From the NCBI GenBank assembly GCA_009691905.1, contig SIAF01000001.1, forward strand, positions 1-49,603: a stretch of DNA of 49,603 nucleotides, given 5' to 3'. The notes beneath the pieces are model-generated. The model did no database searches. It was not told where the DNA came from and saw only the letters and a list, made by a program, of their open reading frames with translations. Made by a program: the position numbers and the translations under genes. Positions 157 to 48,903 of this stretch are shown here, piece by piece. Each line of letters opens with the position of its first letter. The stretch's first letter is position 1. Source of the DNA: Planctomycetaceae bacterium. Lineage in GTDB: Bacteria; Planctomycetota; Planctomycetia; Planctomycetales; Planctomycetaceae.

Positions 157-159
157 ACT

Positions 160-1446
160 ATGGCGAGCATTTCACGCGACCCGAACGGGTATCGTCGGAT
201 TCTGTTTGTGGCCACGGATGGGAAGCGACGCACACTTCGGTTGGGCAAGGTTTCACAGCGTGCGGCCGAAGTCGTCAAAGGCCGGGTGGAACAGTTGCTT
301 GCGGCGAAGCTGACAGGCCACGCCCTCGAAGCCGACACGGCCAGTTGGGTGGCGGAGCGGGAACCCACGCTGACCAGCAAGCTGGCGGCTGTCGGGCTGA
401 TCCCTCGCCGGGACGCTGCCGAGTCTGTCGCGCTGGGCCATTTCATTGCCGAGTACATCGCCAAGCGAACGGATGCCAAGCCGCGTACTATCATCAACCT
501 GCGGTCGACTGCAACGGCCCTTGTGGGCTACTTCGGTGCAGTCCGCCCTTTGAAAAGCGTCACGCCCGGCGAGGCGGTCGAATGGCGACTTTGGATGCAG
601 ACCGAAAAGGGACTGGCGGATAACACCATCCGGCGGCATTGCGGGAGAGCGAAGCAATTCTACCGGCACGCCCTGAAGCGGCGGCTTGTGGCTGACAACC
701 CATTCGGCGAATTGAAATCCCGCGTCACAGGCAACCCAGAGCGGTTCTACTTCATCTCGCGAAGTGAAGCGGAAGCGGTTCTGAAAGCCTGCCCTGATAC
801 GCAATGGCGGCTGCTCTTTGCGCTCTCGCGGTTCGGTGGGCTGCGATGCCCCTCAGAACACCTCGCCTTACGATGGGGGGACGTGGATTGGGAGCGCGGT
901 CGCCTGACGGTTCGCAGCCCGAAGACGGAGCACATCCCCGGCCACGAATCCCGCATCGTGCCATTGTTTCCAGAACTGCGCCCGTACCTCGAAGCGGCCT
1001 TTGATGAAGCCGAACCGGGGACCGAATTCGTCATCACACTTCGCAGGGACGCGAATACGAACCTGCGGACACGGTTGACGAAGATCATTCAGCGGGCTGG
1101 CCTGAAGCCCTGGGAGCGGCTGTGGCACAACCTGCGCGCGACGCGGCAAACTGAACTCGCCGGCGAACACCCAGCGCACGTCGTTTGCACCTGGCTGGGC
1201 AACAGCGAAGCCGTCGCCCGCGAACATTACTTGCACGTCACGGACACAGACTTCGACCGCGCGCTCTGCACTCGGGCGGCGCAGAATCCGGCGCAGCAAC
1301 CCGCCGTTTCGCATTGCAATGCCTCGCAAGCGGCTTGGCCCGCGCACGAAAAAACCCCGGTTTTGCCGGGGTTTGCAACAATGTGCGAAACCTTGCCAAA
1401 CCGGGGGATACCCCCAAGGGGAGTCGAACCCCTGTTGCCGGACTGA
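160..1446 (+). CDS. Tyrosine-type site-specific recombinase / phage integrase family
   Basis: 428-aa ORF. Catalytic-domain signatures occur in order: GGLRCPSE (Arg), WHNLRATR (His-x-x-Arg), TWLGNS, EHYLHV (nucleophile Tyr). The 3' end is uncertain. A ~70-aa uninformative tail crosses the tRNA terminator hairpin and 38 nt of the tRNA gene before the first stop. Confidence 0.85.
   Translation: MASISRDPNGYRRILFVATDGKRRTLRLGKVSQRAAEVVKGRVEQLLAAKLTGHALEADTASWVAEREPTLTSKLAAVGLIPRRDAAESVALGHFIAEYIAKRTDAKPRTIINLRSTATALVGYFGAVRPLKSVTPGEAVEWRLWMQTEKGLADNTIRRHCGRAKQFYRHALKRRLVADNPFGELKSRVTGNPERFYFISRSEAEAVLKACPDTQWRLLFALSRFGGLRCPSEHLALRWGDVDWERGRLTVRSPKTEHIPGHESRIVPLFPELRPYLEAAFDEAEPGTEFVITLRRDANTNLRTRLTKIIQRAGLKPWERLWHNLRATRQTELAGEHPAHVVCTWLGNSEAVAREHYLHVTDTDFDRALCTRAAQNPAQQPAVSHCNASQAAWPAHEKTPVLPGFATMCETLPNRGIPPRGVEPLLPD
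1349..1374 (-). terminator. Rho-independent terminator downstream of tRNA-Glu
   Basis: The minus strand reads AAACCCCGG-CAAAA-CCGGGGTTT followed by a run of T (6 A at 1349-1354 on the plus strand). It lies 34 nt after the tRNA 3' end. Confidence 0.7.
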
Positions 1447-1481
1447 GAACCCGGAGTCCTGGGCCACTAGACGATGGGGGC
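1409..1481 (-). tRNA. tRNA-Glu: tRNA-Glu (anticodon CUC)
   Basis: The reverse complement folds as a 73-nt cloverleaf. Acceptor is GCCCCCA/TGGGGGT with a Glu-type short D arm (GTCTAGTGGCCCAGGAC). Anticodon stem is CCGGG/TCCGG with loop TT-CTC-AG. T arm is AGGGG-TTCGACT-CCCCT, discriminator A, CCA not encoded. D and T arms closely resemble E. coli tRNA-Glu. Confidence 0.9.
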
Positions 1482-1611: not shown

Positions 1612-4600
1612 TCAATTGAAAGCTTCGATGCCGCCGTTGCCCAGGTCGGCAATCGCGTCGCTGCCGAATTTCCAGAACCAGTCGAGGCCCGCTTCGCCGA
1701 TCATCGTATCGATCGACGATCCGTCGGCGAGGACCGTGGTGCTGTCGAGTTTGAAGGTGCCGTTCAGCCCGGTGCCGTTTTTCAAGTGGTCGATCCGCAG
1801 GTCGTAGGCCAGATCGATGCGGGTCCACTCGGCCATGACGGCGTCGATGGCCGGTCGATTGAGTATCAGCGTCGATTCGTCGTAGTAAGACAGCTTGCCG
1901 GCAATCAGCAGGTCGTCGTCGTCGCCGCCGTTCAGGTTGTCGACGCCGGTGCCCCCGACCACGAGATCGAGGCCCCCCAGCCCCCCGATCGTGTCGTTTC
2001 CCGCCCCGCCGATCAGCACGTTGTTCAGGCTGTTTCCGAGAATCGTGTCGTTTTTCGACGACCCGACGACCATTTCGAGGTCGCCTCCGGACAAAAGCGT
2101 CAGGTTCAGGTTGCCGTTCACGGGCTGCGCACTCGTGCTTGCCAGATTGATCGCAATCGCGACGGTCGTCGTTTGCGAGAAATCGAGCAGGTCGACCCCC
2201 GCTGATTCGGCGAGCGTGTCGCTGCCGAGCGCGGCATCGGCGTCGAATGCATACACGTCGTCGCCGTTGCCCCCCGTCAAAAGGTCGTTTCCGACTCCGC
2301 CGACGAGCACGTCGTTGCCGTCATTTCCCGTGAGCGTGTCGTTGCCGGCGCCCCCCGTGAGCGTGTTGGCCAGGGCATTGCCGATGAGTACGTCATCCAG
2401 CGAACCGCCGATGACTCGGTCGATCACATCCCCGGCCCCCAGCGTGAGCGTCAGGTTGCCGTTGACGACCTGGGTCGAACCGAGCGACAGGTTGACTGTC
2501 AGGCCCTGAGTCGTGGTGGCCGAAAAATCGAGCGTGTCGACGCCCGCCCCCACGAGCTCGTCGATCGTGTCGCTTCCCAGGGCCGAATCGGCGTCGAATG
2601 AGTATTTGTCGTCGCCATTGCCCCCCTTCAAGAGGTCGGCGCCGGCCCCGCCGACGAGCACGTCGTTGCCGTCATTTCCCGTGAGCATGTCGTTACCGGC
2701 ATTCCCCGTGAGCGTATTGGCCAGGGCATTGCCGATCAGCACGTCATCCAGTGAGCCACCGGTGAGGTTTTCGATCGCGTCGCCGGCGCCGAGCGTCAGC
2801 GTCAGGTTGCCGGCAGCCACGACCTGAGGCGTCGTTACCGACAAATTGAACGCGATCGTCTTCGTCGAGGTGGGCGAGAAATCGAGCGTGTCGGCGCCGG
2901 CGGTCTCGGCGATCGTGTCGCTCCCCAGCGCCGAATCGGCGTCGAATATGTACGTGTCTTTGTCGTCGCCGCCGGCAAGGGTATCGTCGCCCGCGCCTCC
3001 GACCAGGTTGTCGTTGCCGGCGCCGCCGGCCAGCTCGTCGTTCCCGGCGCCGCCGGTGAGCGTGTTCGCGAGCGCGTTGCCGGTGAGCGTGTCGCCCAGC
3101 GCTCCCCCGGTCACGCTTTCGAACGTGTCGGCCGCCGACAACGTCAGCGACACGTTGCCGTTGACGACCTGCGTCGTCGTCGTCGACAGATTCACGGCGA
3201 TGGCCTGCGTTGTCGTGGACGAAAAGTCGAGAGTCTCGGTGCCGCCACCTGTGGCTTCGACCAGCGTATCGCTTCCCAAAGCCGCGTCGGCGTCGAACAC
3301 ATAGGTGTCGTTTCCGGAGGCACCGGCCAGCGTGTCGTCGCCCGGCCCCCCGGTGATGAGGTTGGCGAGGGTGTTGCCCGTCATGCTGTCGCCCAGCGCT
3401 CCGCCGATCACATTTTCGAAGGCGGCGTTCGAACCGAGCGTCAACCCGAGGTTGGCGTTGACGGTCTGAACGGTCGTCAGACTCAGATTGACGGTAATTG
3501 CGTGAGTCGTCGTGGCTGAAAAGTCGAGGGTGTCGATACCGGCGCTGTCGGCCAGCGTGTCGCTCCCCAGCGGCGTATCGGCGTCGAAGATGTAGCTGTC
3601 ATTCCCGGCGTTGCCCGCGAGCGTGTCGTCGCCGGCCCCGCCATCGAGCACGTCGGCGCCGGTCCCACCGGTCAGCGTGTCATTGCCATCGCCCCCGAAC
3701 GCCAGCAGCGGCTTGGTATACGCCGCCGCATTCACGACGTCGTTGCCGCCGTGTGCTCTGATGCGCAAACCGGTCACGTCGCCGGTCGAGTAAGTGGACG
3801 TCGTGCCGTTATAGGTCACGCCGGGCGTCGCGCTGACGGTGACCGTGTCAGCCGCGCCGCTGCCATGGACTTGAACCAGGTTCTTGGCCGCGTGATAAAC
3901 ACCGGCAAACGCCACCACGTTGTTGTCGCCCGGAGAGCTCGCGTCGGTCTCTGGTATCGCGTCGGTCGGGTCGGCGACAAACAGCAAAAAGTAATCGGCG
4001 TCAACCTCGGCTGCCCCTGCAGCCGGCAGCGCAATCTGCCCGGCGCCGCTGCCGATCGTGAACGTTTTGACGTGCGTCCCCACCGTTGTATCGGCTGTCG
4101 CCGAAAGCGAAACGGTCGCCAGCAGCACGTCGCCGCCGACCGTCGCGTCACTCGAGCGGTACACACCCAGGTTGAACGGATCGACGGGCGAGGTGAGCAC
4201 CTCGTAGGTCACAGTCAGGGTCGTACTGCCATTCGCAGTGGCCGAGAGCATCTGGATGTCGGGAGGGGGGTTATCGGCGGTCCAGGTGTCAGAAATCGAC
4301 CCTGTGCCGTGCTGGCCGACCAGGTCGGCAATTCCACCCATGTTGACCGTGGCCGCGTACGTGCCGTCGTAACCGGTGATATTGGTAAGGCCGTTGATGC
4401 GATAGGTCGATCCGGAGACGAACGACACCGTCACGGCACTGGTGATGAGGTTGGCTCCGCCGTTACGAGTCAGCGTGACGTCGTGAAAATCGAAACTGGC
4501 CAGGTCGATTGGTCTGGTAAACGTCACATCGACCGACGGGACGCTCGACAGATGCGGGTCGGGCGCGACGTCGACGATGTCGCCGACGGGGCGGGTGCGC

Positions 4601-6779
4601 TCGAACAGGATCGCGCGGCCGCTGCCGATCAGGGGATGGACGCCGTTGTTTTTCGCAACGAGCAGCCGATCGAGGCCCTGCGCGCCTGCGGCCTTAAGCC
4701 CGACCGTCGCGCCGGCGCCGTTATCGACCGTGGCATCGCCGAAGTCGAGATCGCCGTAATTAAAAACGATGTTGCCGTCGGACGATCCCGTATCCAATTG
4801 CAGAACGGCTTGGAAGGTCGCCGGCGACGGGCTGCCGGGTGCATGGCGGACCGAACTCCATTCGATTACAAGCCGATCGCGAACACTGTCGCCGGTGGTG
4901 TCTTCGAATCGCGACAGCACCAGGTCGGCGGCGCCGTCGAGATCGGTTCGCAGGTCGTCCCAAAAGGGGGCAATCGCTGCCTGTGACGGCGAAGCCGACA
5001 GGTTGGTGTTCGCGGCCGTGGGATTGGCGCTGCCGAACGTGATCAGGCCGTTGCTGCTGACGAACAGCGACGAGGCGCCTGTGTAAGTCGTGCCGTAAAA
5101 TGTGAAGGTATTGACGCCGAGGTCAATCGCCGCGGCGCCGTCGTCAACCCCATCGAGCACCGTGACGACGCCGGAATCGGCCGGATTGAGATCGATCGGC
5201 TCGTAGGTCGTGGCCGCCGCGAGATAGTTCGAGGGGGTCGCTGCGGCATGGCTCAGCAGGTAATTCAAAGTGCCGGCCGCGTTCAGCCGCCCTCCGCTGG
5301 CGACGATGCCCGACAACGACGCCCGCGGGTCGACGCCCCCCAGAACGGCTGCACGAATCTGCTGATAGTTGGCGTCGGGTGCGAGGCTCATGGCCAGCGC
5401 GGCGACCCCAACCACATGCGGGGTTGCCATCGATGTGCCGCTCAGCGACCCGTAGGTGTTGCCGGGCGTGGTGCTCAAGATCGACGTGCCCGGGGCCGCC
5501 AGATCGACGGTGGTCAAACCGTAGCTCGAAAAGCTCGCCAGCGCGTCCGTATTCGTCGTGGCGGCGACGGCGATGATGTTATCCAGGTCGTAGCTGGCCG
5601 GATAAAACGGCGTCGCGTTATTGTTGGAATGACTATTGCCGGCGGCGGCGACAAAAAGGACGCCCGCGTCGCATTGAGAGGCGATCGCATCATACAGTGC
5701 CGGATCGTACCCGCCCCCCCCCAACTGTTGTTCGTCACACGAATGTTGACGCCGCGTTCGCGCATCATAGCGGCATAGTTCAGCGCCGCGATCGCATCGC
5801 TGTCGGTGCCGCTGCCCGAAGAGTCGAAAACTTTCAGCGCCATCAAACTCACGTTCCAATTCACGCCGACGACGCCCACGCCATTGTTGCCGACGGCGCC
5901 GATCGTCCCTGAGACGTGCGTCCCATGCTGGTTGTCGTCCATCGGATTGCTGTCGTGATTGACGAAATCCCAACCGTGAACATCGTCGACGAAGCCGTTG
6001 CCGTCATTGTCGATTCCGTCACCGGGCGTTTCTCCGGGATTTGTCCAGATATTCGCCGCCAGGTCGGGATGGGTGTAATCGATGCCGGTATCGATCACAC
6101 CTACGACGACTGAGTTGCTGCCGGTCGTCAGCTCCCAGGCGGCGGTGGCGTCGATGTCGGCATCGACCGTGCCGCCGGTTTGCCCGGTGTTTTCGAGTCC
6201 ATACAGGCTCGAAAATGAGGGATCATTTGGAATCGTCGAAATCTGCAGCACCTGGTCGCGCTGGAAACCGGCGATGCTGGTATTGGCTCGGAACCAGGCG
6301 GCGACCGTTTCGGGTGAACCGCCCCAGGTCTCAATCAAAACCTCTCCGACGCCCCCCAGGCCGCGGACAACCTGGAAGGAGACCGGCGCCGCGTTCAGCA
6401 GCGATGCCGTCTGGCCGACCGTCAGAAATGAACTGACCGCATTTTTATCGAACTGCACGATCCATTCGGCCGTTGATAATTCAGTGTTTAGCCCGAGATC
6501 GGCGGTGGCAACGGTCGAAGCCACCTGCGGAGATGCCATTTGCGGCGCGGCAGGCACGCTTTGGAACCACAGCGGCGCAATCCCGGATGCCGGCACTACA
6601 CCCGCTGTCGCCGCCAGTGTGCTGAGCATCGTCCTGTCTTCGAGGACAACTGCGTAAAGACACTGGCCGACCGCTTCACGGCGGCGACGAAGCTCGGGTC
6701 GCAGACCGAGCCCGCGGCCTGAAAGCAGCGACCGATTCCACCAGGTCGAGAGCCCACGCCAGTCGGGAAAGTTGTTCAT
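1612..6779 (-). pseudogene. Giant secreted S8 subtilase / NIDO-like / Ig-like / RTX calcium-binding super-repeat protein, interrupted by a -1 frameshift (pseudogene, phase-off state or homopolymer sequencing error)
   Basis: Two overlapping minus-strand ORFs (6779->5514 and 5973->1612) split one S8 domain. Asp (VIDTGID), His (HGTHVSG) and Asn (NNSWGG) lie in the upstream ORF. GVLFVAAAGN and Ser (GTSMATPHV) lie in the downstream ORF. The frames meet at a C9 run (5714-5722, G9 on the coding strand). One extra G gives NSWGGGGYDPALYDAI... and a continuous 1722-aa protein (5168+1 nt is divisible by 3). The start is taken as ATG 6779 (MNNFPDW...), followed by RRRREAV...VVLEDRTMLS. Confidence 0.85.
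1900..3750 (-). repeat. Tandem ~350-bp (~117-aa) coding super-repeats built from RTX GGxGxD nonapeptides
   Basis: The landmark FDADxALGSDT recurs at about 2218, 2569, 2918, 3268 and 3560. Each unit has the form ...GGAGNDxLxGGxGxDxYxFDADxALGSDTxxE..DTLDFSxTTTxxIxVNLSxxxxQxVNxNLxLTL...IGGxLxDxLxGNxLAN. Confidence 0.85.
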
Positions 6780-18237: not shown

Positions 18238-19314
18238 CTACGAATGCTCTGCCCGTCGCAGACGGTCGTTGAGCGCTCGCCCCAGCCCCTGCTCGGGAAA
18301 TGGCTCGGCGACGATCAGTTCGAGCCCGGCCGCGTCGAGCCGGCGCAGGGCGGCAAAAAACTTCGCGGCGGCCTCGCGCAGGTCACCGGTTACCGAAAGC
18401 ACTTCGACAACTGCGTACGGTGTCGTGTCGGCAGGGAGACGAAAGGCGAGGAGCCCGACTCGATGGAGTGAGGCCGCAGTTCGCTCCGCCTGGTCGCCGG
18501 TCGAGTGCGTCGGCCCCTGCACCACGAGCGCCGTTCGCGGTGCGTAATGCTGGGGCAGCGTTCCCGGAGAGGCCTGTCCCGCCGACGATTCTTCGATCGG
18601 CTGCATCCGCCCCTCGCCCCTCGCCCCTCGCCCCTCGCCCCTCGCCTGTCCCGCCGGCGATTCTTCGATCGGCTGCATCGCGGGAACCTTAACCGGGCCT
18701 ATGACCGCTTCGATCTCTTCCAGTGTGGTCCCACCCGGACGCAGCAGTGTGGCCCCATCGGGACTCAGTTGCAGCACGGTCGATTCGACCCCGACCCGGC
18801 ATGGGCCTCCATCGAGAATCAGATCGACGAACGTTCCCAATTGCTCGCGGACATGGGCCGCAGTCGTCGGGCTGATCCGGCCGAACAGGTTGGCGCTCGG
18901 CGCGGCGATCGGCACGCCGGCCGCGCGCAACAATTCGAGGGCCAGCGGATGATCGGGCATCCGCACGGCGACCGTGGGGCAGCCGGCCGTCACCAGATCG
19001 GGCACAGCCGCTGTCCTGGGCAATACCAACGTCAGTGGACCGGGCCAGAAGCGATCGATCAGCGATTGAGCCGCGGCGGGGACTTCGACAACCAGTCGCG
19101 GCAGCCAACTCGGGTCGGCAACGTGTACAATCAGAGGATCGAACCACGGCCGACCTTTGACCTCGAACACGCGGGCCACAGCCCGTCCGTCGAACGCGTT
19201 CGCCCCCAAACCGTAGACCGTTTCGGTGGGAAAGGCCACGATCCCCCCCTCACGCAAAAAGCGCGCGGCACGGGTGATTTCGTCAGTCGTTGCAGGTGGC
19301 TGCGGGTTCGACAT
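18238..19314 (-). CDS. tsaC: L-threonylcarbamoyladenylate synthase, Sua5-type (YrdC domain + Sua5 C-terminal domain)
   Basis: GGIVAFPTETVYGLGANAF...KGRPWFDPLIVHV marks the YrdC domain. The HYAP linker motif and a C-terminal Sua5 domain follow. I take the start as ATG 19314 (MSNPQPP...). The ORF track extends it to a TTG at 19362. Confidence 0.88.
   Translation of the reverse strand: MSNPQPPATTDEITRAARFLREGGIVAFPTETVYGLGANAFDGRAVARVFEVKGRPWFDPLIVHVADPSWLPRLVVEVPAAAQSLIDRFWPGPLTLVLPRTAAVPDLVTAGCPTVAVRMPDHPLALELLRAAGVPIAAPSANLFGRISPTTAAHVREQLGTFVDLILDGGPCRVGVESTVLQLSPDGATLLRPGGTTLEEIEAVIGPVKVPAMQPIEESPAGQARGEGRGARGEGRMQPIEESSAGQASPGTLPQHYAPRTALVVQGPTHSTGDQAERTAASLHRVGLLAFRLPADTTPYAVVEVLSVTGDLREAAAKFFAALRRLDAAGLELIVAEPFPEQGLGRALNDRLRRAEHS
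18572..18678 (-). repeat. 35-bp direct duplication flanking a (CCCCTCG)5 heptamer array inside the tsaC coding sequence
   Basis: DR1 18572-18606 and DR2 18644-18678 differ at one base and are offset by exactly 72 nt. Five CCCCTCG units occupy 18610-18644. On the coding strand this encodes MQPIEESPAGQA-RGEGRGARGEGR-MQPIEESSAGQA. Confidence 0.9.
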
Positions 19315-19543
19315 CGTGTGAGAGGATACCGCGCAGCGCAGCGCTTTCGTAGGACGGTGCAACCTGGCATCAGACGGCGGTCGCCGGAAATTGCGTTTGC
19401 CGACGGTGGTCGGTACGCTGATCTGCGTCGATTGACAAGCGCCAGTCCCGTTTTCAACTGTTCATTCTCCCCGCCCCCCGTCGAGGGAGAGGGGAGAGAA
19501 AAACCGAATTCACCTGGCGACCTGACTCCCGGAGACGCATCTC

Positions 19544-32524: not shown

Positions 32525-34156
32525 GTGCGCCGCATGTCGCCGCGATTTACTTTTCACGCAGTGGTGTTGTGGCTCGCTGCGGCGGGGACGCTGATGGCCC
32601 CGACAGCGCCGCCAGGGCTGACGACGTCGGCGGCGTTGGGGGCGGGTTCACCGCGAATTCGAACTGTGGCCCGGCGTCCGCGCGACGTCTCGCAGTTCAA
32701 GCGGCAACATGCCGAACGTCGGGACAAATTCACCGCCGCGCTGGACGATCTGGCGAGCGATTGTGACTCCAAAGGCCTTGCCGACGCGGCCGAGGGCATT
32801 CGCCGCCTTGCCGAGCCGGTGGACACGGCCGAATTGCGGATGGCGCCGCTGCCCCACGCCGTTCTTGAGCCGATTTCGCACGACTTGCCCGCCGACGAGC
32901 GTCTCTGGCGCACGCAGTTGAGATTCCAGCAGGAATCGTACGCCAAAGATCTGTACCTCTTGTCGCGGACCGCGCAGCTCTCGGGACACATCAGTTTCGC
33001 GTTCGACCTCGTGCGCGAAGCCGCGTTCAATCATCCCGATCACAAGGCGGCCCGCCGCGTGCTGGGGTTCGTCCAGAGCGGCGACGAATGGCTCTCGTCG
33101 TTCGAAGACAAGATGCAGAAGGACAAAAAGGTCTGGCACGACGAATTCGGTTGGATCCCGCGGGAACACGTCGAACGCTACGAGCGCGGCGAACGGTACT
33201 ACAAAGGCAAGACCGGCGCGGCCCAGTGGATGAGTGCGGCCAAAGAGGCCGAGCTGCACCGCAAATTCTCCAACGCCTGGGAGATTCGAACCGAGCATTA
33301 CCTTGTGAAAACCAACCACAGTCTCGAACGGGGTGTCCAGATCGCGAAGAAGCTGGAAGGCGTGCATAGCCTCTTTTTTCAACTGATGGCGGGCTTTTTC
33401 AACGCCCCCGAGCAGGTTCGCAAACTGTACGAAGGCTCGAGTGCCAAATTGCCGCCAATGCCCAAGGCCAACGTCGTGCACTATTATCGCGAGCGGCAGG
33501 AGTACCTCGATACGCTAAAACTTTTGACCGATCAGCCGATCGAAATCACGCGCGGGATGTACTTCCCGCGCGGGGGCATTGCCTACTTCTTTTTCGACCC
33601 CAATGCGAACGACGACTCGACGCTGTACCACGAGGCGACGCACCAACTGCTCTCGGGCAGCCGCCCCAAAACGGGCGACGTCGGCATTAAGAACAGCTTC
33701 TGGATCATCGAAGGCATCGCCTGCTATATGGAATCGTTCCATCGCGACGGCGATCGGTTTTCAGTCGGCGATCCCAGGCACGAACGAATTCAGTCAGCCC
33801 GCTATCACCTGATTGACGAACACTACTACGTTCCCTTCCGCGAATTCGCGCGGATGGGCATGGTGGCCTTTCAGGGCATCCCGACGCCCCGCATCGGCAA
33901 GAATTACAGCCAGGGGGCGGCGCTGACGCACTTCTTCATGCACTATGACGACGGCCGTTATCGGGAAGCCCTGATCGAGCATCTCTCGCAGGTCTACAGC
34001 CCCACGAAATTCGTCCGCGAAGCCCCCGAATCGCTGGAAGACCTGACCGGCACCGAAGCCGAAGAACTCGACCAGCAGTACGCCGAGTACATCCGCAACC
34101 TGACGCTTGAGCCCCCCCCGCGGCCGTCGCGCGAATCGGCCGGCGTCGGGAAATGA
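32525..34156 (+). CDS. DUF1570-type putative MA-clan metallopeptidase, secreted
   Basis: It has a signal peptide and the motifs LYHEATHQLL (HExxH) and FWIIEGIACYMES downstream, as in DUF1570. The start is GTG 32525 or ATG 32534. Confidence 0.75.
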   Translation: MRRMSPRFTFHAVVLWLAAAGTLMAPTAPPGLTTSAALGAGSPRIRTVARRPRDVSQFKRQHAERRDKFTAALDDLASDCDSKGLADAAEGIRRLAEPVDTAELRMAPLPHAVLEPISHDLPADERLWRTQLRFQQESYAKDLYLLSRTAQLSGHISFAFDLVREAAFNHPDHKAARRVLGFVQSGDEWLSSFEDKMQKDKKVWHDEFGWIPREHVERYERGERYYKGKTGAAQWMSAAKEAELHRKFSNAWEIRTEHYLVKTNHSLERGVQIAKKLEGVHSLFFQLMAGFFNAPEQVRKLYEGSSAKLPPMPKANVVHYYRERQEYLDTLKLLTDQPIEITRGMYFPRGGIAYFFFDPNANDDSTLYHEATHQLLSGSRPKTGDVGIKNSFWIIEGIACYMESFHRDGDRFSVGDPRHERIQSARYHLIDEHYYVPFREFARMGMVAFQGIPTPRIGKNYSQGAALTHFFMHYDDGRYREALIEHLSQVYSPTKFVREAPESLEDLTGTEAEELDQQYAEYIRNLTLEPPPRPSRESAGVGK

Positions 34157-34182
34157 GGGGCGAGGGGCGAGGGGCGAAGGGT
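34155..34182 (+). repeat. (GAGGGGC)3 + GAAGGGT heptamer array (G-rich on the plus strand)
   Basis: G4 tracts lie at 34157-60, 34164-67 and 34171-74, and a G3 tract at 34179-81. The array overlaps the TGA of the DUF1570 gene and directly abuts the stop of the four-helix-bundle gene. Confidence 0.9.
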
Positions 34183-34548
34183 TTAGGGACGAGATTGCAG
34201 GGCTTTGCGCAGGCCGGCCAGCATGCGGCTGATTTCGTCCGACAGACTCAGGCATTTCTCCAGGTCGTCCTTCTTCAGAAGATCGACGTCGTGACTGAGG
34301 ATCAAGTGCGTTTCCAGTTCGGCCAACGATCCCTGTGCGACGCTCAAGTAATTCAGGTATTCCTTCGTGTGCGCCCTCGCGTTCCCCTCGGCGATGTTTG
34401 CCGGGATTGAGGAGGCCGAGCGCCGAATCTGACTGGTCATCCCGAACAGTTCGCTCTTGGGAAACATCTTCGTCAGTTGGTAGCAGCGTTTGGCGAGAAT
34501 CATCGACTTCTGCCAAACAATCAACTCCCGATAATGCTGCGCTTTCAT
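34183..34548 (-). CDS. Four-helix-bundle protein (TIGR02436 / 23S rRNA intervening-sequence protein family, same family as DGR Avd)
   Basis: 121 aa. YRELIVWQKSMILAKRCYQLTKMFPKSELFGMTSQIRRSASSIPANIAEGNAR...YLNYLSVAQGSLAELETHLILS is the characteristic signature of this family. Confidence 0.9.
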   Translation of the reverse strand: MKAQHYRELIVWQKSMILAKRCYQLTKMFPKSELFGMTSQIRRSASSIPANIAEGNARAHTKEYLNYLSVAQGSLAELETHLILSHDVDLLKKDDLEKCLSLSDEISRMLAGLRKALQSRP

Positions 34549-34554
34549 GTTTTT

Positions 34555-34597
34555 CCCTCTCGCCCCTCGCCCCTCGCCCCTCGCCCCTAGCCCCTAG
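34555..34597 (+). repeat. CCCTCTCG-(CCCCTCG)3-(CCCCTAG)2 heptamer array (C-rich on plus strand, inverted relative to 34155-34182)
   Basis: The array starts 6 nt from the four-helix-bundle ATG. Its last two units encode the final Ala-Arg-Gly-stop of the CusA-like gene. 34562-34582 is the perfect complement of 34155-34175 (21 bp). Confidence 0.9.
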
Positions 34598-37500
34598 CCG
34601 CCTCCCGTTCTCGCTGCAATTTAAGCCACCGCCCGCGGCGGACCCAATAGAAGCGCACGGGGAGAAACAAATCGACCACTTCGTCGGAGATCAACAATCC
34701 CCCCAGCACAGGCAGCGCCATCGGGGCCAGGATTTCGCCGCCGACCCCCGTGGCGAACACCATCGGAAAGATGGCGATGATCGCCACCCCTTCGGTGAGC
34801 AGCTTGGGGCGCAGGCGATGGACGGCCCCCTCGATGACCGCCTGCCGCAGCTCGTCGAGGGACTGGATGTTTTCCAACCCGCCGCGTTTCTCAATCGCCT
34901 CGCGCAGGTAAACCAGCATGATAATGCCGGTTTCCGTCGCCATCCCGAAGCAGGCGATGAAACCGACCCACACGGCAACGCTGAAATCCATCGGCGGGGC
35001 GCTCCACCCCTGCATGATCTTGGGAAACAGGAACATGAAAAACGCCCCGCCGGCCAGTGCCTCGGGGACGGCCAGCATCATCAGGGCGGCGTCGGCCAGG
35101 TCGTGGTACGTCATGTACAAGATCACGAAAATCAGCACGATCACGGCGGGAAACACGAATCGCAAGGTGCGCGCGGCTCGCACCTGGTGCTCGAACTCGC
35201 CGCTCCACTCGATGTGTACTCCTTCGGGCAGTTTGACCTTCTGACTGACGACGCGCTGCGCCTCGTCGACGAAGCCCACGATGTCGCGGCCGCGGACGTT
35301 GAGGGTCACTGCATTGAGCAACCGCCCGTTTTCGCTTTTGATCATCGCCGGGCCTTCGACGATGCGAACATCGGCCAGCGCCCCCAGCGGGATCAGCGGT
35401 TTGCCGCGCAGCGCATGCCCCGGCGTTGCGGAGTGCGACTCGCCCCCGGAGGGGGGTGCTGCGACTGTCCCCACCCCGCCCCCGAAACGAACCGTGGCTT
35501 CGCCCGAATCGGCATCCATCGTCGTGGGCGCGCCCCTCCCCGTCGGCGCGCTCATGCTGCCGGGGCTGACCAGCAGCCGGCGAATACTCTCTTCGTCTTC
35601 GCGATGGACGCGCGCATAGCGGATGCGGACCGGAAATCGTTCGCGCTTCTCGACGGTGTAAGTCACTGCGCGCCCGGCCAGGGCGACTTCGATCTCGTTC
35701 TGAATGTCTTCGACCGAGATGCCGTACCGGGCCGCCTGCTCGCGATCGATGTCGATTTGCAGGTAACCCTTGCCCATGATGGGCGAGGCGATCGTGTCGC
35801 GTGCGCCTTTGAGCGGCTTCAAGGCCGCTTCGATGTCTTTGCAGACGCGGTCGATCGTATCCAGATCGGGACCAAAGACTTTAACGCCGATGTCGGTCCG
35901 GACGCCGGTCGAGAGCATTTCGATGCGGTTGATGATCGGCTGCGTGAAAATGTTGCTCCAGCCGGGCACCTGCAAGACGCGACCCATCTCGTCGTCCACG
36001 AGCACAGCCTTGGGGCCGTTCGCTCTGGACCAGAAAAAGGTTCGCTCATGAAATGGCCTTTCAAGCTCGGTGCGCAGCGCCAGAAACGGCTCAATCGCAG
36101 CGCTGTCGAATTCGTGGCCGAGTTGAATTTGCAGGGTGGCCGCGGCAAAGCGTTCGAGGGCAGCCCCCTGTGGTGCGTCGCCGACCAGCTTGGCGGCGAT
36201 CGCGGCTTTCGCGACTTCCTCCAGGGCATATGCCGTATAGGCTTCGATGCCGCGGTCGAACAGTTCCCAGTTGATCTCGCGGACCCGCTCGTGCCAAAGT
36301 TCCAGCCGGCGCGCTTCAATCGAGTGCAGTAATTCGCCGGCAACGGTGGGGCGCTCGCCTCCCAGTGCTTGGGCAACCAGGTGGTAGGCCTGTGCCGGCA
36401 ATGACCCTTTCCATTCCAACGCTTCGACGACGCTATTGATGATTCCGCGCTCATGCAGGTCGCGAGCCGTTTCCTGCGTCAACAGGGTGACATCCTCCAA
36501 AGCCGGATTGCGGGCCAGCCAGCGGCCGAATTGCGGGGTAATCGCCGCGGTCAGACGCTCGATGTGACTTTGCTCGCTGTCTGGTGCGGGCCACTGCAAA
36601 TGGCCGGCGGCGTGCATGCGGCCGACCAGGTCGGTGATAGCGACGCGGGTCAGCGCCGACTCGAGCTCGCGCTCGAATTCCTGATAGCGCAGCGATGCCA
36701 ACTCGCGCAGCGTCTCGTCGAACCGCTCGAGTGCCCTTTGGGTCGCGTCGTTGAGGACGTTTTTCCGCGCTTCATCGAATTGCTGCTGCTTTTTCTCATC
36801 CTCGGGCGCAGGAGGCAGATGACCGTGCTGTTCCAGCGCCTGCCAGACGGCGGAGCTCTGTTGGAGGGCGTCATCGAACTTCAGCACGCGTTTGGGCCAG
36901 AGTTCCTTGGGGCGGAAGTTGACGAACGTCTCGACCATGTCGAGCGGCGCGGGATCGGTGGGAGTGTCGGCTCGGCCCGCCTTGCCGATCACCGACTCGA
37001 CTTCGGGAAAACCCCGCAACAGCGCATCGCGCGCCTTCAAGTCGTCGGCCGCTTCGGTCACGCTGGCCCGTGGAACGGTCACCGGCATGTCGAGTGTCGT
37101 CCCCTCGTCGAGGGCCGGCATGAAGGCCACGCCGATCTTCGGGAAATGGTAGGCCCACAGGCCGATCAGCACCAGACTGGACAAGATGATCGTTCGCCAG
37201 ACCACGACGCGTTGAGTCTTGAATGCCAGAATAAATAACCCGGTGACGATCGCGGCGGCATAGCCATAGCAAATACATTTGAGTGGCCAGATCGCAATCT
37301 CGAATGGCGTCTTGGTGAGCAACAGGCCGATTTGCGGAGCGACCCAGACGAAGCCGACTGCGATAGCGACCAGCGCCAAAGCGAGCATGAAAAACAGCAT
37401 ATCGCGCAGGAATGACACGAAGCCCTGTCCGCGTTTCCCTGTCGTGGCAAGTACGGTCAATGACGACACCAGCCCGAACACCGTCAGAAAACACCATCGC

Positions 37501-39209
37501 CAGGCGATCTCAGAGGCCCCCTGTCCGAGCAGAGCCTGCAAGGGAAACATGCCCGCCGCCAGAATCAGCAGCACGGCGAACATCCACATCACGAGGTTTC
37601 GTCGCGGCAAGGCCCATGTCAGCAGCGGCTTATAGATATGAATGAAACTGCGGACGATGGCATTTTGTTCTTCGCTTTTGAGCCGCCCCTTGATGAACGT
37701 CGGGATCAGGGCCGGCACCAGCGTCACCGAGATCAGCGCTACGCCGATCATGGCGAAGCTTTTGGTGAACGCCAGCGGATGGAACAGCTTCCCCTCGCGC
37801 CCCGACAGCATGAACACCGGCACGAACGAGAGCAGCATGATCAGGACCGAGAAGAAGATCGGCCGGCCGACAGTGCGGCACGGCTCGATCACCAGCTCGC
37901 GAATGTCGCCCGTCACCTTGCGATCGCCGAAGTGCGCCTTGAGATGATGCGTGGCGTTCTCGGTCATCACGATTGCCTGATCGACCAGAATGCCGATCGA
38001 GATCGTGATCCCCGCCAGCGACATGATGTTGGCCTGAATGTCGATGATGCCCAGTTGCCGCAAGACCCACATCAACAGGAACGAAAACAGCACCGACAAA
38101 GGGAGCGTGATGCAGATCACGAACACGCTGCGGAGGTGCGTCAGAATCAGCAGAATGGCGATCGAGGCGATCGCCATTTCGTGCCACATGACCTGGGCCA
38201 GCGTGTGAATCGCCCCTTTGATGAGGCGCGTGCGGTCGTAAGCCGGCACGATGTGGACTCCTGCCGGCAGGCCGGGCTGGAGTTCTTGAATCTTCTCTTT
38301 GACGCGCTGCGTGACCTTGAGCGGGTTTTCCTGGTGCCGCATCAGCACGACTCCTCCCACCACTTCATTGCCATCTTTCTCGTACACGCTGCGGCGGAAT
38401 TGCGTGCCGAGCTGCACGGTCGCGACCGTTTTGACGTAGATCGGCGTCCCTTTGACCTCTTTGATGACGGTGTTCTCGATATCCTGCTTATCGCGGATCC
38501 AACCGACTCCGCGGACGATATATTCGGCGTTGTTCTTCTGGACGACTCCGCCGCCGCCGGGCATATTGCTTTTTGCCACCGCGCCGTACAGGTCGCCCAG
38601 TGTGATGCCGTAGGCCCGTAGCGATTCGGGCCGAACGTCGATTTGGTATTCGAGCGGCGTGCCGCCGACGGTGGCGACGTCGGCCACGCCGGGCGCGGCA
38701 TTCAACTGCGGCGCGATATAGAACTTGTTGAGCGCCCACAGCCGCGGCGGGTCGATCGGGTCGGCGGCGCTCGACTCGACCGTATACCAGAATATCTGCC
38801 CCAGGGCCGTCGCGTCGGGAGCGAGGTAGGGCACAACCCCCGCCGGCAGAAACGTCCCCGCCTGGCTCAGTTTTTCGGTGACCCGCTGGCGGGCAAAGTA
38901 GAAGTCGATTTTGTCTTCGAAGATGATCGTGATCATCGAGAAGTTGAATTCCGACGACGAGCGCACAGCGCGAACCCCCGCCAGCCCCTGCAGTTTGCGC
39001 GACAGCGGGTACGTCACCTGATCTTCAATCTCGCGCGGACTGCGCCCCATCCAGTCGGTGAAAACGATCACCTGGTTTTCGCTGAGATCGGGGATCGCGT
39101 CGACCGGCGTGTTCAGCAGCGCGAAGACCCCCGCGACCGTCAGTGCCGCAGCAACGATCAGCACGAGAAACCGGTTACGAATCGAGAGTTCAATCAGGCG
39201 TTCGATCAT
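34587..39209 (-). CDS. CusA/CzcA-family heavy-metal efflux RND permease, unusually long (1540 aa) with large insertions
   Basis: Start is [53 protein letters not shown]... (CusA N-terminus). The conserved blocks [33 protein letters not shown] and the C-terminal TM bundle are present. The ATG at 39209 is chosen over the upstream ORF extension. Confidence 0.9.
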   Translation of the reverse strand: [1540 protein letters not shown]

Positions 39210-39253
39210 GGCTGACCGTGTTCTCCGGAAGCAGGACGGATGGAAAAGCCGTC

Positions 39254-41344
39254 CTAAAGTTGCGTCTGCTTCAATTTTGCGGCCTGCTTGAGCGTCGCCT
39301 CGGGATCGGCCAACGCCTCGTCGCGGCACGCCTCGCAGCAAAGAAACACCGGCTCACCGCCAACCATGACCTTAACGGGCGTGCCCATTGAGCCGAGCCG
39401 GCTCTTGTGAAGGACGACGCAAAATCGCTGCTTTCTCGCCAGGGGACGATCTTCGTCGGACAGCTTGGCGAGCGCGGCTTCGATCTTCGCATCGGTCCTT
39501 TTTTTCTGAGTCGTCGGCAGCGGCGACGTTGTCGGCGAAGGGGGTCGGCTGTCTTTCGATTTTTTGACCTTGGCCAGCGTTTCCTGGGGTTTGGCCAGTG
39601 CCGCCTTTCGGCAAGCATCGCAGCAGACGAACACCGTCTGGTCGTCGATGACGAGCTTGATCGGCACCCCCATCGAGCCCAGACGGCTGTCTTCGATGAT
39701 CGGGCAGAACTTCTGGTCTTCCGCAATCCGCCGGTCGTCCGGCGCGAGCCGGGCCAGGGCCTGCGTGATCGTCGCGTCGGTGTCTTCGGGGGTCGAGGGG
39801 CGGACGGTGCTGCCGCCCGAAGGTCCCTGTTTCGAGCCGCTGCTGCCGCCGAAATAGATCGAGCCGACCGCGGGATTGAGCCGCGTTTCGGCGTCGACCA
39901 GGAATGAGCCGGCCGTCACGACCAGATCGCCCAGCGCCAGGCCGTGCAACACCGGAAAGAACGGAACCTCGTCCGGCCCGGTCATCCGCGGTCCGAGAAC
40001 GACGCGAACCCCTTCGTAAACTCCCGGCAACGTCTGGCGATAGACGATCGTCTGGCTGCCGGTGTCGATGATCGACGATTCGGGGATGGCCACCGCCAGA
40101 CCCTGCTCGAGCAGGTCCATCTTATAGAGCTCCGGATTCGAACCGACCGCCTGCACCAGCGCCCGGATTTCGCGCAGCGGGATTTGCAGACGAACGGTGG
40201 CGGTCGTACCGGGGCGAAGCTTATGGCCGGGGTTCTTGAGTTCGAACCGCACGGTGACGGTGCGGGTCTCCTGATCGACGTGCGGATAGATGAAGGTCAA
40301 CAAGCCCTGAAACGCCTCGTCAGGAAAGGCCCGCGTCGTGGCGGTCACGGGCAAGGGATCTTCGAACAACTGCGTCCCAGGCTTGTGCTGCTGGTCGGCC
40401 GGCAGGAACGCCAGGTCGTCTTCGTAGATTTGCGCCTGAATCCAGACCGACGAGAGATCGGCCACGTCGTACAGCGGGCTCCCCTCGTCGACGTACTGCC
40501 CCTCGCGGACGTATTTCTTGATCACGTGCCCGGTGATCGGCGAGCGAATTTTCAAATGCGTGTTGGCTTTGCCCGTCTGCACGATCTCATCGATCTGATC
40601 GTCGCTGATTCCCAGGAGCTGCAACCGCGTGCGGACGCTGGAGAGGAGCTCGGCGTTGTTGTTTTTTCTGGCCTGCAGCAAGTTCTGCACGGTGACCAGC
40701 AGGTCGGGACTGTAGATCGAGGCCAGCACGTCGCCGGCGTCGACCATCTGGCCGGTCTCGTTGACGTGCAGCGTGTCGAGCCGCCCTTTCACGCGGGCCG
40801 AAACATTTTTCACGTTGCGTTCGTTGAATTCGACGTAGCCGACGGCGGTAATCTCTTTCGACAGCGGCTGGTAATCGACTTTCCAGGTGCGAATCCCGGC
40901 GAGCACGACGCGGTAGGGAGAAAGTTGCACGCGGTTGACGATGCCGGCCGGCAGGGCCACTTCGTGCGCATCTCCCTTTTTGCGTTTTGACAGCGGCATA
41001 AAGCAGATGGGGCATTTCTCCTTGCCGTTGTCGCGAATGACCGAGGGGTGCATCGGGCAGAACCATTCGACGGTGCTCGCGGCCCCCGGCGCGGCTGCCG
41101 CGGGTCGCGTCCACTTCTGGTAGTGAGCCAAAAGCAGATCCCACTGCGTGATCACGGCGCCGATCACAACGAGAATGGCGATGAACCGCAGGCGGGCCAG
41201 CTTGACGAGGATGATGAAGTCGAACCACCACCACGCCTTCCGCCAGCCGGAAAGCCCCGGCGGAGCGCGCAGGCCCCCTTCGTCGAAATCGGAAGCGACA
41301 TGCTGCTGGCGATCGCCCGGCGGAGGGGTTTGCGTCTCGGACAT
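39254..41344 (-). CDS. CusB-like RND periplasmic adaptor with N-terminal heavy-metal-binding domain and two tandem C-terminal Cys4 modules
   Basis: WFCPMHPSVIRDNGKEKCPICFMPL is an HMBD-type motif. The adaptor core includes VGYVEFNERNV...VNETGQMVDAGDVLASIYSPDL. The C-terminal modules are FCPIIEDSRLGSMGVPIKLVIDDQTVFVCCDACR and FCVVLHKSRLGSMGTPVKVMVGGEPVFLCCEACR. I take the start as MSETQ (41344). An alternative is at 41401. Confidence 0.85.
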   Translation of the reverse strand: MSETQTPPPGDRQQHVASDFDEGGLRAPPGLSGWRKAWWWFDFIILVKLARLRFIAILVVIGAVITQWDLLLAHYQKWTRPAAAAPGAASTVEWFCPMHPSVIRDNGKEKCPICFMPLSKRKKGDAHEVALPAGIVNRVQLSPYRVVLAGIRTWKVDYQPLSKEITAVGYVEFNERNVKNVSARVKGRLDTLHVNETGQMVDAGDVLASIYSPDLLVTVQNLLQARKNNNAELLSSVRTRLQLLGISDDQIDEIVQTGKANTHLKIRSPITGHVIKKYVREGQYVDEGSPLYDVADLSSVWIQAQIYEDDLAFLPADQQHKPGTQLFEDPLPVTATTRAFPDEAFQGLLTFIYPHVDQETRTVTVRFELKNPGHKLRPGTTATVRLQIPLREIRALVQAVGSNPELYKMDLLEQGLAVAIPESSIIDTGSQTIVYRQTLPGVYEGVRVVLGPRMTGPDEVPFFPVLHGLALGDLVVTAGSFLVDAETRLNPAVGSIYFGGSSGSKQGPSGGSTVRPSTPEDTDATITQALARLAPDDRRIAEDQKFCPIIEDSRLGSMGVPIKLVIDDQTVFVCCDACRKAALAKPQETLAKVKKSKDSRPPSPTTSPLPTTQKKRTDAKIEAALAKLSDEDRPLARKQRFCVVLHKSRLGSMGTPVKVMVGGEPVFLCCEACRDEALADPEATLKQAAKLKQTQL

Positions 41345-48827: not shown

Positions 48828-48903
48828 AGGGGCGAGGGGCTAGGGGCTAGGGACGAGAAATCGAGTTCTATCCACTATCCACTATCTACTATCTACGATC
48901 CAC
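48828..48903 (+). repeat. GGGGCGA/GGGGCTA heptamer array + 11-nt match to the four-helix-bundle gene 3' end + (TATCCAC)5 heptamer array
   Basis: AGGGGCGAGGGGCTAGGGGCTAGGGACGAGA lies at 48828-48858. TAGGGACGAGA is identical to 34184-34194 (stop + Pro-Arg-Ser of the 4HB gene). TATCCAC TATCCAC TATCTAC TATCTAC GATCCAC lies at 48869-48903. Together these fill almost the whole 85-bp convergent spacer. Confidence 0.85.

Follow-up and report, generated by a model that had tools for sequence, protein, structure and literature searches.

We analyzed a 49,603-nt stretch of DNA from a Planctomycetaceae bacterium (hereafter the window), in which a small gene lies between the stop codons of two convergent genes, a + strand gene and a minus-strand CusA-like gene belonging with cusB to an operon, and is bracketed by two inverted arrays of a 7-nt repeat unit. 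The features of this interval, together with related arrays elsewhere in the window, are as follows.

34155..34195 (unstranded): left arm, reading (GAGGGGC)x3.9 at 34155-34181 and decaying into GGGTTTAGGGACGAG; G-rich on the + strand, it forms the C-rich 3' arm in the sense (minus) transcript of the ORF, where the C-rich array follows the TAA, and the arm overlaps the TGA stop (34154-34156) of the + strand gene and the last codons and TAA of the ORF.
34183..34548 (-): 121-aa PF05635/TIGR02436 gene of the four-helix-bundle ('23S rRNA IVS protein') family.
34549..34554 (-): 6-nt spacer (AAAAAC in sense) between the purine-rich end of the upstream arm (GAGAGGG, a possible ribosome-binding site) and the ATG.
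34555..34604 (unstranded): right arm, reading CCTCTCG(CCCCTCG)3(CCCCTAG)2CC on the + strand, with the C-rich array (x6.4) at 34559-34604; it is the G-rich 5' arm in the sense transcript, and supplies the last codons (A R G) and TAG stop (34587-34589) of the CusA-like gene, which ends ...GCT AGG GGC TAG.
34155..34582 (unstranded): closing stem, with arms 34155-34177 and 34560-34582 separated by 382 nt.
18608..18644 (unstranded): solo array of the same unit, (CGCCCCT)x5.6 on the + strand, in frame within the linker of a Sua5/TsaC gene (18238..19362, -), where it encodes RGEGRGARGEGR; it is flanked by 35-bp direct repeats at 18573-18607 and 18645-18679.
48828..48857 (unstranded): solo array of the same unit family (AGGGGCG/AGGGGCT x4.3, ending TAGGGACGAGA as the left arm does), beginning a few bases after the TAG of a + strand gene.
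48868..48903 (unstranded): adjacent array of an unrelated heptamer, (CTATCCA)x5.1, just before the stop of the convergent release-factor gene and not complementary to its neighbouring array.

The arrangement described by the sequence-only reading was confirmed, and it is far from chance: the pattern GAGGGGCGAGGGGC (up to 2 mismatches) has 17 matches in the window against 1.24 expected, and 0 of 100 shuffles reach 17. Some details required correction. The arms are perfectly complementary over 23 nt (96% over longer arms of 26 nt) rather than the 21 bp first given, the 'DUF1570' label attached to the + strand gene rests only on a sub-threshold Pfam hit (E 0.008, 16.9 bits against a cut-off of 22), and the arrays are not unique to this spot. 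RNA folds of either strand close the ORF with the array-array stem in both the MFE and the centroid structures (z = -4.0 and -3.45). Scans of 33800-34900 detected no sigma-70-type promoter and no intrinsic terminator (no U-tract), PADLOC gave no hit, and Rfam found only one tRNA in the window, with no rRNA and nothing at the cassette.

The protein matches PF05635 (E 2.4e-39, 134.3 bits against a cut-off of 33.8, residues 7-111), TIGR02436 (E 1.1e-37, 128.5 bits against 24) and NF008911 (151.8 bits against 137). The RxxxSxxxNxxE core reported for Xcc0516 homologues (PMC3936711) is present, with R42/R43, S47, N51 and E54 invariant or nearly invariant in a 17-sequence alignment that includes Xanthomonas members. 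The closest solved structure is Xcc0516 (PDB 2GSC), and homology to its chain A (E 7.7e-22, residues 6-120) is the basis on which we predict a four-helix bundle assembling into a homopentamer.

Next, we asked whether this architecture recurs around other members of the family, and found it in more than ten bacterial phyla. In 64 of 79 genome loci, inverted complementarity between a locus's own flanks exceeded every shuffled control, with a median alignment score of 41 compared with 16 for shuffles, 18 across loci and 16 in direct orientation. The same held for 27 of 40 viral-contig loci, which were recovered with a profile search after a search with the single protein found nothing, as well as for two of three cyanobacterial plasmid copies (Anabaena and Nostoc), all seven close homologue loci, and Xanthomonas XCC0516, which lies between accB and accC flanked by GGGAATC arrays. 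The 7-base unit differs between lineages, but the two flanks match each other. Period-7 arrays occur at 5.8 per kb within 140 bp of the gene and 0.20 per kb elsewhere, an enrichment of about 29-fold that the sequence-only reading had set as a test of its proposal, while periods 6, 8, 9 and 12 show no such enrichment. Array length is sharply peaked at 30-33 nt whatever the unit sequence, and gene-less hairpins and solo arrays of the same unit lie nearby.

The unit also travels with the gene. Protein pairs at 70% identity or more share the unit in 79% of cases, against 13-16% for pairs at 35-55% identity. Proteins 74-86% identical to the one in the window, all with GGGGCGA-type arrays, sit in an MmeI-like restriction gene and next to a histidine kinase, and a 76% identical copy, which did not enter the array comparison, lies between czcB and an ACR_tran gene; the cassette is thus not specifically riding on an efflux operon, as had been proposed. 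The orientation of neighbours, when judged by a longest-ORF heuristic that is noisy in GC-rich DNA, was the same as that of the cassette gene for 63% of upstream and 71% of downstream neighbours; in all nine loci with called or annotated genes that show the upstream gene, plus the window itself, that gene is co-directional.

Comparison with a close orthologous locus (L162) revealed the clearest dynamic behavior that we observed, and it is at the DNA level: the flanks align in direct orientation (87-88% identity), with flanking proteins 87% and 86% identical, whereas the core 34156-34582 aligns in reverse complement (83%), such that the cassette is inverted in place with breakpoints inside the arrays. 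dS is 0.70 for the cassette and 0.54 and 0.70 for the flanks, and a dN/dS of 0.12 indicates purifying selection on the protein. We also searched for a precise empty site at this junction, but in 80 metagenome orthologues of the DUF1570-like gene (41-64% identity) none has cusA, arrays or a PF05635 gene downstream; synteny is lost, no clean empty site was recovered, and the only close orthologue, L162, is occupied. Target-site duplications were not found beyond chance, with the longest direct match between the two flanks equal to the control for 45 pairs (5.87 against 5.80) and 83 solo arrays; none is visible at 34155 or 34604, and the direct repeats around the Sua5 array are an isolated case. 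No transposase or recombinase is encoded in the cassette, whose only ORF is the PF05635 gene, or next to it.

These findings place the cassette close to several described systems. ORF-bearing intervening sequences (IVS) of 23S rRNA genes (Leptospira, Coxiella, Brucella, Haemophilus; PMC4990558) carry the same protein family in the loop (PF05635, 'S23p'), have terminal inverted repeats forming a stem of about 23-28 bp that encloses the ORF, and have tandem heptamers of variable copy number directly upstream of it; the Coxiella IVS in particular has a 28-bp terminal stem cut in mid-stem by RNase III and 2-3 tandem GACAGAT heptamers before the ORF. Both these IVSs and the present cassette are regarded as selfish or neutral inserts. 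The present copy differs in lying not in a 23S rRNA helix (9, 25 or 45) but between two convergent protein-coding genes whose stop codons it shares, in having an ORF under purifying selection where the Coxiella ORF is decaying and probably untranslated, in showing an in-place DNA inversion that has not been reported for IVSs, and in that RNase III cleavage here is suggested by analogy only. The arrays likewise resemble the G-rich heptamer repeats of Xanthomonas (GGGAATC) and Nostoc (GGGGAYT) described by Rehm et al. 2015 (PMC4692102), being tandem arrays of a 7-nt unit with a G3-4 run and a preferred size of about 4 units, located in intergenic positions next to ORF ends, often in inverted pairs, and varying in copy number between relatives; cyanobacterial STRR heptamers (Mazel 1990) are a further parallel. 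That work treated the repeats as G-quadruplex SSRs of unknown function and, in a text search, contained no mention of PF05635 or four-helix-bundle genes, whereas here many units are not G-rich and the arrays are tied to a specific gene. The sequence-only reading's statement that no mechanism had been described is accordingly partly wrong, as both the repeats and the IVS stem with its RNase III cleavage are published. What appears new is the link between the two: literature searches on PF05635, TIGR02436, S23p, heptamer repeats and HEPN found no paper connecting the arrays to this gene family, although coverage of subscription journals was sparse enough that an earlier description cannot be excluded.

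Collectively, we favor (at a probability of roughly 0.6) the explanation that the interval holds one copy of a widespread insertion cassette, consisting of a PF05635 gene enclosed by two inverted arrays of about 30 nt each, and that it is the same kind of element as the ORF-bearing IVSs. Our analysis directly establishes that gene and arrays are inherited as a unit and occur at unrelated sites, that the arms are inverted copies able to close the ORF into a loop of about 380 nt in a transcript from either strand, that the arms recombine at the DNA level and have flipped the cassette in a close relative, that the protein is kept by purifying selection, and that arrays of the same unit lie elsewhere in the same genome. 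Beyond this we infer, in the absence of transcript data, that the ORF is probably transcribed by read-through from cusBA, given the lack of a detected promoter, and that the stem of at least 23 bp is probably an RNase III substrate as in the Coxiella, Leptospira and Salmonella IVSs; cleavage would separate the ORF RNA from the host transcript, which may be why the cassette is tolerated in operons and in rRNA. We further infer that the tandem-repeat build lets the arms pair in several registers, such that slippage, arm-to-arm recombination or template switching could re-homogenise them, and that the protein, pentameric by homology, probably binds its own arrays; how the cassette spreads and what the protein does are likewise matters of inference. 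Several points weigh against this explanation. Across 59 stems, G.U-compatible mismatches in the sense RNA numbered 64, against 76 antisense-compatible (p = 0.35) and 100 transversions, which gives no support for wobble selection (though it is uninformative rather than contrary), and complementarity may be kept by DNA-level copying instead. In one locus (L013), an MmeI/PglX-like ORF stays open, with zero stops in the host frame, through five hairpin-array segments and the cassette itself, and a second, overlapping ORF stays open through two more hairpins, which is hard to reconcile with efficient cleavage of that mRNA. Strong purifying selection on the protein is not explained by a purely RNA-level, neutral IVS model, and no insertion mechanism is evident. 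The interpretation offered by the sequence-only reading was thus partly supported, in that a self-contained cassette, the IVS topology and the lack of a reverse transcriptase among the window's large ORFs all held.

Of the alternatives, a gene-and-repeat partnership of the REPIN/RAYT type, which does not exclude the explanation above, remains possible but tentative. In REPIN-RAYT systems a transposase gene is flanked by inverted copies of a short repeat that is also dispersed through the genome as hairpin-forming doublets, mostly between genes; here the gene would sit between two copies of the repeat it serves, gene-less hairpins and solo arrays would be its dispersed, non-autonomous progeny, and the RNA stem and any RNase III cleavage would be side effects. 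This view is consistent with the many gene-less inverted pairs and solo arrays near the cassettes, with arrays more than 300 bp away matching the local cassette's unit in 35% of cases against 10% after permutation (0 of 2000 permutations reach 35%), with the two further arrays of the cassette's own unit in the window, with the Xanthomonas repeat flanking the XCC0516-type gene and counted by Rehm et al. at about 186 sites, about 70 of them in inverted pairs, with the co-variation of unit and protein lineage, with the homopentameric structure of 2GSC and purifying selection, and with the length peak, which suggests a molecular ruler. However, PF05635 has no known catalytic motif, transposase fold or Y1 motif (the flanked gene is not an IS200/IS605-type Y1 transposase), nucleic-acid binding has not been shown for this subfamily, the repeats are tandem heptamers rather than a palindromic unit, several gene-and-unit families can coexist in one genome, many hairpins near a cassette carry unrelated units, co-variation could reflect simple co-inheritance, and G-run counts per array peak at 4-5, which does not separate a '4 for G4' model from a '5 for pentamer' one. 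Less likely is a hairpin at the 3' ends of host genes, acting like REP/BIME elements as a bidirectional stabiliser or insulator, with the PF05635 gene merely residing in the loop. The arrays do abut or supply stop codons, both strands fold into the stem, gene-less hairpins occupy the same kind of intergenic position (for example at the orthologous site in loci L006 and L009), Rehm et al. found the repeats within 50 bp of ORF ends and rare between divergent genes, and the G-rich arm comes first in 41 of 46 pairs, which we infer would keep a C-rich, Rho-loading stretch from appearing unpaired. This would not explain why this one protein family is the cargo across more than ten phyla, nor its purifying selection, and many copies lie inside genes or between co-transcribed essential genes (nuoK/nuoL, accB/accC, cas6/cas4), where a terminator or stabiliser would be harmful; the lack of a U-tract in the terminator scan also counts against it.

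The remaining readings appear very unlikely. Generic G-quadruplex repeats, a secondary idea of the sequence-only reading, find some support in that both arrays fit the G3-4 N3-4 pattern and related GGGAATC and GGGGAYT oligonucleotides form G4 in vitro (PMC4692102), but 71 of 177 arrays of this class (about 40%) have no G3/C3 run and yet show the same length peak of about 31 nt (32% at 30-33 nt, against 4-10% in neighbouring bins) and the same inverted pairing; together with the 29-fold association and the co-varying flanks, this largely refutes the idea as a general explanation. A programmed invertible switch, which would change which convergent operon expresses the ORF or sends antisense RNA into its neighbour, is suggested by the inversion in L162, but only one inversion is seen across a divergence of dS about 0.7, fitting rare homologous recombination between 30-50-bp inverted repeats; the only integrase found in the window is at 157-1446, 33 kb away, and the nuoK/nuoL copies all have one orientation. 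Least likely is a remnant of a diversity-generating retroelement, whose Avd accessory protein is a homologous pentameric four-helix bundle that acts with a reverse transcriptase on a template RNA: weak, sub-threshold matches to bAvd (31 bits against a cut-off of 40) and DivGenRetAVD (34 against 80) speak for it, but the protein scores far better against the IVS-protein models, no reverse transcriptase family was found among the 31 largest ORFs of the window, and none was called next to the cassette in the annotated loci, with one locus (L161) having a group II intron RT about 5 kb away in a mobile island.

A more speculative possibility, which we consider improbable but not excluded, is that PF05635 proteins are sequence-specific, pentameric binders of tandem heptamers, each of which sizes, maintains and spreads arrays of its own unit, in a partnership of the REPIN/RAYT kind run by a protein that is not a transposase. 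On this reading, the ORF-bearing IVSs, the cyanobacterial and Xanthomonas heptamer repeats, and the 'four helix bundle protein' genes scattered through restriction, CRISPR and housekeeping operons would all be products of one so far undescribed system.

In practical terms, these arrays break metagenome assemblies, with many homologues sitting at the ends of contigs of 0.5-2 kb, and they can add in-frame Gly/Glu- and Ser/Pro-rich linkers to proteins. Xanthomonas campestris offers an immediate experimental system, with a solved structure (2GSC), a catalogued repeat family and a cassette inside the accBC operon. Our results also change how published associations of this family with cas, restriction-modification and DGR loci should be read, as at least some of them, such as the copy between cas6 and cas4 on Anabaena pANA02, look like insertions of a cassette into operons rather than functional partnerships. 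Together, three long-standing puzzles would become one testable problem: where the 23S rRNA intervening sequences come from, why long heptamer repeats (the G4-forming repeats of Xanthomonas, the repeats of Nostoc, and STRR) are so abundant in some bacteria, and what the very large PF05635 family, for which our search returned more than 7,900 homologue clusters at E <= 1e-10, does.

To establish whether the interval at 34155-34604 was organised as the sequence-only reading had described, we combined profile searches, tandem repeat detection with Tandem Repeats Finder and RNA folding, and found that the description held. The features of the interval, together with others that we observed elsewhere in the window, are as follows.

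157-1446 (+): phage-type integrase gene, abutting a tRNA gene at 1409-1481 (-); the region 157-1481 may be the boundary of a genomic island
1612-6003 (-): gene for a 1463-aa subtilase/RTX-repeat protein, next to the above
18608-18644: (GAGGGGC)-type array of 37 nt, in frame in the linker of a Sua5/TsaC gene, where it encodes RGEGRGARGEGR; it is flanked by 35-bp direct repeats with 1 mismatch (whole region 18573-18679)
34155-34181: left array, (GAGGGGC)x3.9
34183..34548 (-): 121-aa ORF of the PF05635/TIGR02436 family
34559-34604: right, C-rich array, x6.4
34155-34177 and 34560-34582: inverted arms of 23 nt, perfectly complementary
34587-39341 (-): CusA-like RND pump gene (PF00873, 1584 aa)
48828-48903: two unrelated heptamer arrays side by side between convergent genes, (AGGGGCK)x4.3 and (CTATCCA)x5.1

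The 121-aa ORF matches PF05635 (E 2.4e-39) and TIGR02436 (E 1.1e-37), and matches the Avd models only below their cut-offs. The TGA of the + strand gene overlaps the first repeat unit, while the CusA-like gene takes its last codons and its TAG from the right array. The unit pattern occurs 17 times in the window against 1.24 expected, and RNA folds of either strand close the ORF with the array-array stem in both the minimum-energy and the centroid structures (z = -4.0 and -3.45). The "DUF1570" label that had been given to the + strand neighbour rests on a sub-threshold hit only. The CusA-like protein is far longer than the 1021-position ACR_tran model, which matches it in four separate stretches, so that it appears to carry a large insertion.

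Next, we sought to determine whether this arrangement is particular to the window. We retrieved 80 loci encoding relatives of the protein from species-representative genomes, drawn from Planctomycetota, Hyphomicrobiaceae, Brevundimonas, Acidobacteriota, Armatimonadota, Gemmatimonadota, Chloroflexota, Treponema, cyanobacteria, Bacteroidales and others, and read their flanks. Most of these genes have an upstream heptamer array and a downstream array that is its reverse complement. The unit differs between lineages (GGGAATA, GGGAGTA, GGGACTA, GGGATTA, GGGAACA and GGGACAA, but also GGTGCTA, GCGATGA, GTGGCTA, GAGTGGC, GGCAGTA and AAAGCAG), and even between two copies 2 kb apart in one genome (locus L023), yet the two flanks of a given gene match each other. 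In 64 of 79 genes, complementarity between the gene's own inverted flanks exceeds the maximum of the shuffled controls, with a median local-alignment score of 41, compared with 16 for shuffles, 18 when flanks from different loci are paired and 16 in direct orientation. Period-7 arrays occur at 5.8 per kb within 140 bp of these genes and at 0.20 per kb elsewhere in the same 1.2 Mb, whereas periods 6, 8, 9 and 12 show no such enrichment.

We observed the same pattern in other collections, including 27 of 40 viral-contig loci, annotated cyanobacterial plasmids, and all seven loci that carry the closest homologues of the window protein. Among the plasmids, a Nostoc C052 copy has (GGGAACA)4 upstream and (CTGTTCC)6 downstream, while the array-flanked copy on Anabaena sp. 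90 pANA02 (locus L169, 2300-3000) lies between cas6 and cas4 of a type I-D CRISPR-Cas operon; published "associations" of 23S_rRNA_IVP with cas genes (PMC3936711) may be insertions of this cassette. Among the viral contigs, AT-richer, Bacteroidota-like copies (L188, L200, L203, L206 and L208) have a TAnnTTTG motif, the Bacteroidota -7 promoter element, between the upstream array and the ORF, about 20-60 nt upstream of the ORF, suggesting that these cassettes carry their own promoter. Some cassettes are decaying pseudogenes, as the PF05635 copies at L022 9260-9613 and L025 5502-5885 have an internal stop codon. Many of the homologues numbered P0002-P0120 lie on contigs of 0.5-2 kb, with the gene starting within about 50-150 nt of the contig end (L165-L168), and the arrays appear to break short-read assemblies.

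We then compared the cassette with published repeats and with a solved structure. The closest solved structure is Xcc0516 from Xanthomonas campestris (2GSC, E 7.7e-22), whose X. campestris orthologue we located between accB and accC, flanked upstream by GGGAATCGGGAGTGGAGAATCGGGAATCGG and downstream by the complementary CCCATTCCCCATTCTCGACTCCCTATTCCC, which runs up to the accC start codon. The same 20 kb holds an inverted pair between groES and groEL and a solo (GGGAATC)4.3. GGGAATC is the repeat that Rehm et al. catalogued in Xanthomonas (PMC4692102), finding about 186 sites and 70-75 inverted pairs; they showed that it forms G-quadruplexes in vitro and left its function unexplained, and a text search of that paper finds no mention of this gene family.

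A second link is to the intervening sequences (IVS) of 23S rRNA. Warrier et al. (PMC4990558) describe a Coxiella IVS in which a PF05635 ("S23p") ORF is closed by a 28-bp stem of terminal inverted repeats, with RNase III cutting in the middle of that stem, as mapped by RACE, and with two or three tandem GACAGAT heptamers just upstream of the ORF whose number varies between strains. The anatomy is the same as here, so the IVS analogy drawn in the sequence-only reading is well founded, although membership in the strict sense fails because this copy is not in rRNA.

To ask whether gene and arrays travel together, we compared units between protein pairs, and found that pairs 70% identical or more share the unit (at most 1 mismatch) in 79% of cases, compared with 13-16% for pairs at 35-55% identity. 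Proteins 83-86% identical to that of the window, all with GGGGCGA-type arrays, sit inside an MmeI-like type IIG restriction-modification gene (loci L161, L165 and L166/L167), where cassettes recur at one position. A 74% identical copy lies beside a histidine kinase, and a 76% identical one, whose DNA could not be read, lies between czcB and an ACR_tran gene. The cassette is therefore not tied to the efflux operon. In two further loci, L019 and L049, cassettes appear to lie inside a DEAD/DEAH helicase gene, between motif I and the IICDEAH motif; both host genes, the restriction-modification gene and the helicase gene, are defence-type genes.

Our analysis also revealed dynamics at the DNA level. 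Locus L162 is orthologous to the window, with flanking proteins 87% and 86% identical and a cassette protein 87% identical, but its ORF points the other way. In blastn comparison, window 33001-34175 and 34556-35999 align in direct orientation while 34156-34582 aligns in reverse complement, and the breakpoints therefore lie inside the arrays. Synonymous divergence of the cassette gene (dS 0.70) equals that of the flanks (0.54 and 0.70), which argues for inversion in place rather than re-insertion, and dN/dS is 0.12, the same as for the neighbouring genes, from which we conclude that the protein is functional. We additionally found rapid turnover at one orthologous intergenic site in the Hyphomicrobiaceae, where one genome (L004) is empty (34 bp), one has no arrays, and two near-identical relatives with nearly identical flanks (L006 17855-17967 and L009 15888-15997) carry hairpins built from unrelated heptamers, (GGGAGTA)n and (GTAAGTC)n. 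No target-site duplications flank pairs or solo arrays. The array in the Sua5/TsaC gene, whose 35-bp flanking repeats duplicate MQPIEES(P/S)AGQA, is the only array in the data set with a long flanking duplication, which could be the footprint of how arrays arise.

The same loci hold a wider class of elements, comprising solo arrays and many gene-less inverted array pairs with spacers from a few bases to about 200 nt, whose units are very diverse and include AT-rich ones. Arrays more than 300 bp from a cassette match its unit in 35% of cases, compared with 10% after permutation (0 of 2000 permutations). Within the window, the two arrays at 48828-48903 are not complementary to each other and may be half of two different hairpins. 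Array length is sharply peaked at 30-33 nt (72 of 177 arrays), including for units with no G3/C3 run (32% in that bin, against 4-10% in neighbouring bins), and the preferred size therefore cannot be explained by G-quadruplex formation. Chirality is also strong, in that the arm with more G than C comes first, on both strands, in 41 of 46 inverted pairs.

We also observed host reading frames that tolerate these elements. In locus L013 (8617-13810), an MmeI/PglX-like methyltransferase gene is peppered with heptamer hairpins plus the PF05635 cassette, and an ORF of 1275 aa stays open, with zero stops in the host frame, through five hairpin-array segments and the cassette itself, including the 414-nt cassette ORF read in another frame, while a second, overlapping ORF stays open through two more hairpins. 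This assembly is ONT-only and one apparent frameshift splits the gene, so sequencing error is possible. The window shows the same tolerance of arrays inside coding sequence, in the Sua5 linker and in the CusA tail, which is coded by array units.

Several of these results argue against a purely RNA-level reading. Stem mismatches show no bias toward G.U-compatible changes in the sense RNA (64 against 76, with 100 transversions), host ORFs that remain open across the hairpins fit poorly with efficient cleavage of those mRNAs, and the conservation of the protein is not explained by a neutral IVS model. We therefore treat stem formation and RNase III processing as the best-supported mechanism for tolerance of the cassette, by analogy with the IVS experiments, and regard a partnership between the protein and its own arrays as a serious, if tentative, explanation that does not exclude the first. 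The cassette architecture, its recurrence and the inversion between the window and L162 are direct observations, whereas RNase III processing, the way the cassette spreads and the role of the protein are inferences.

Collectively, these findings confirmed that the feature is real. The accompanying interpretation was borne out only in part: its structural reading was right, but the cassette is not tied to the efflux operon, and G-quadruplex formation cannot explain the preferred array size. In a literature search that omitted most subscription journals, we found no paper that connects the arrays with this gene family. The feature belongs to a widespread cassette class, which generalises the ORF-bearing 23S IVS and ties it to the heptamer repeats of Xanthomonas and cyanobacteria.
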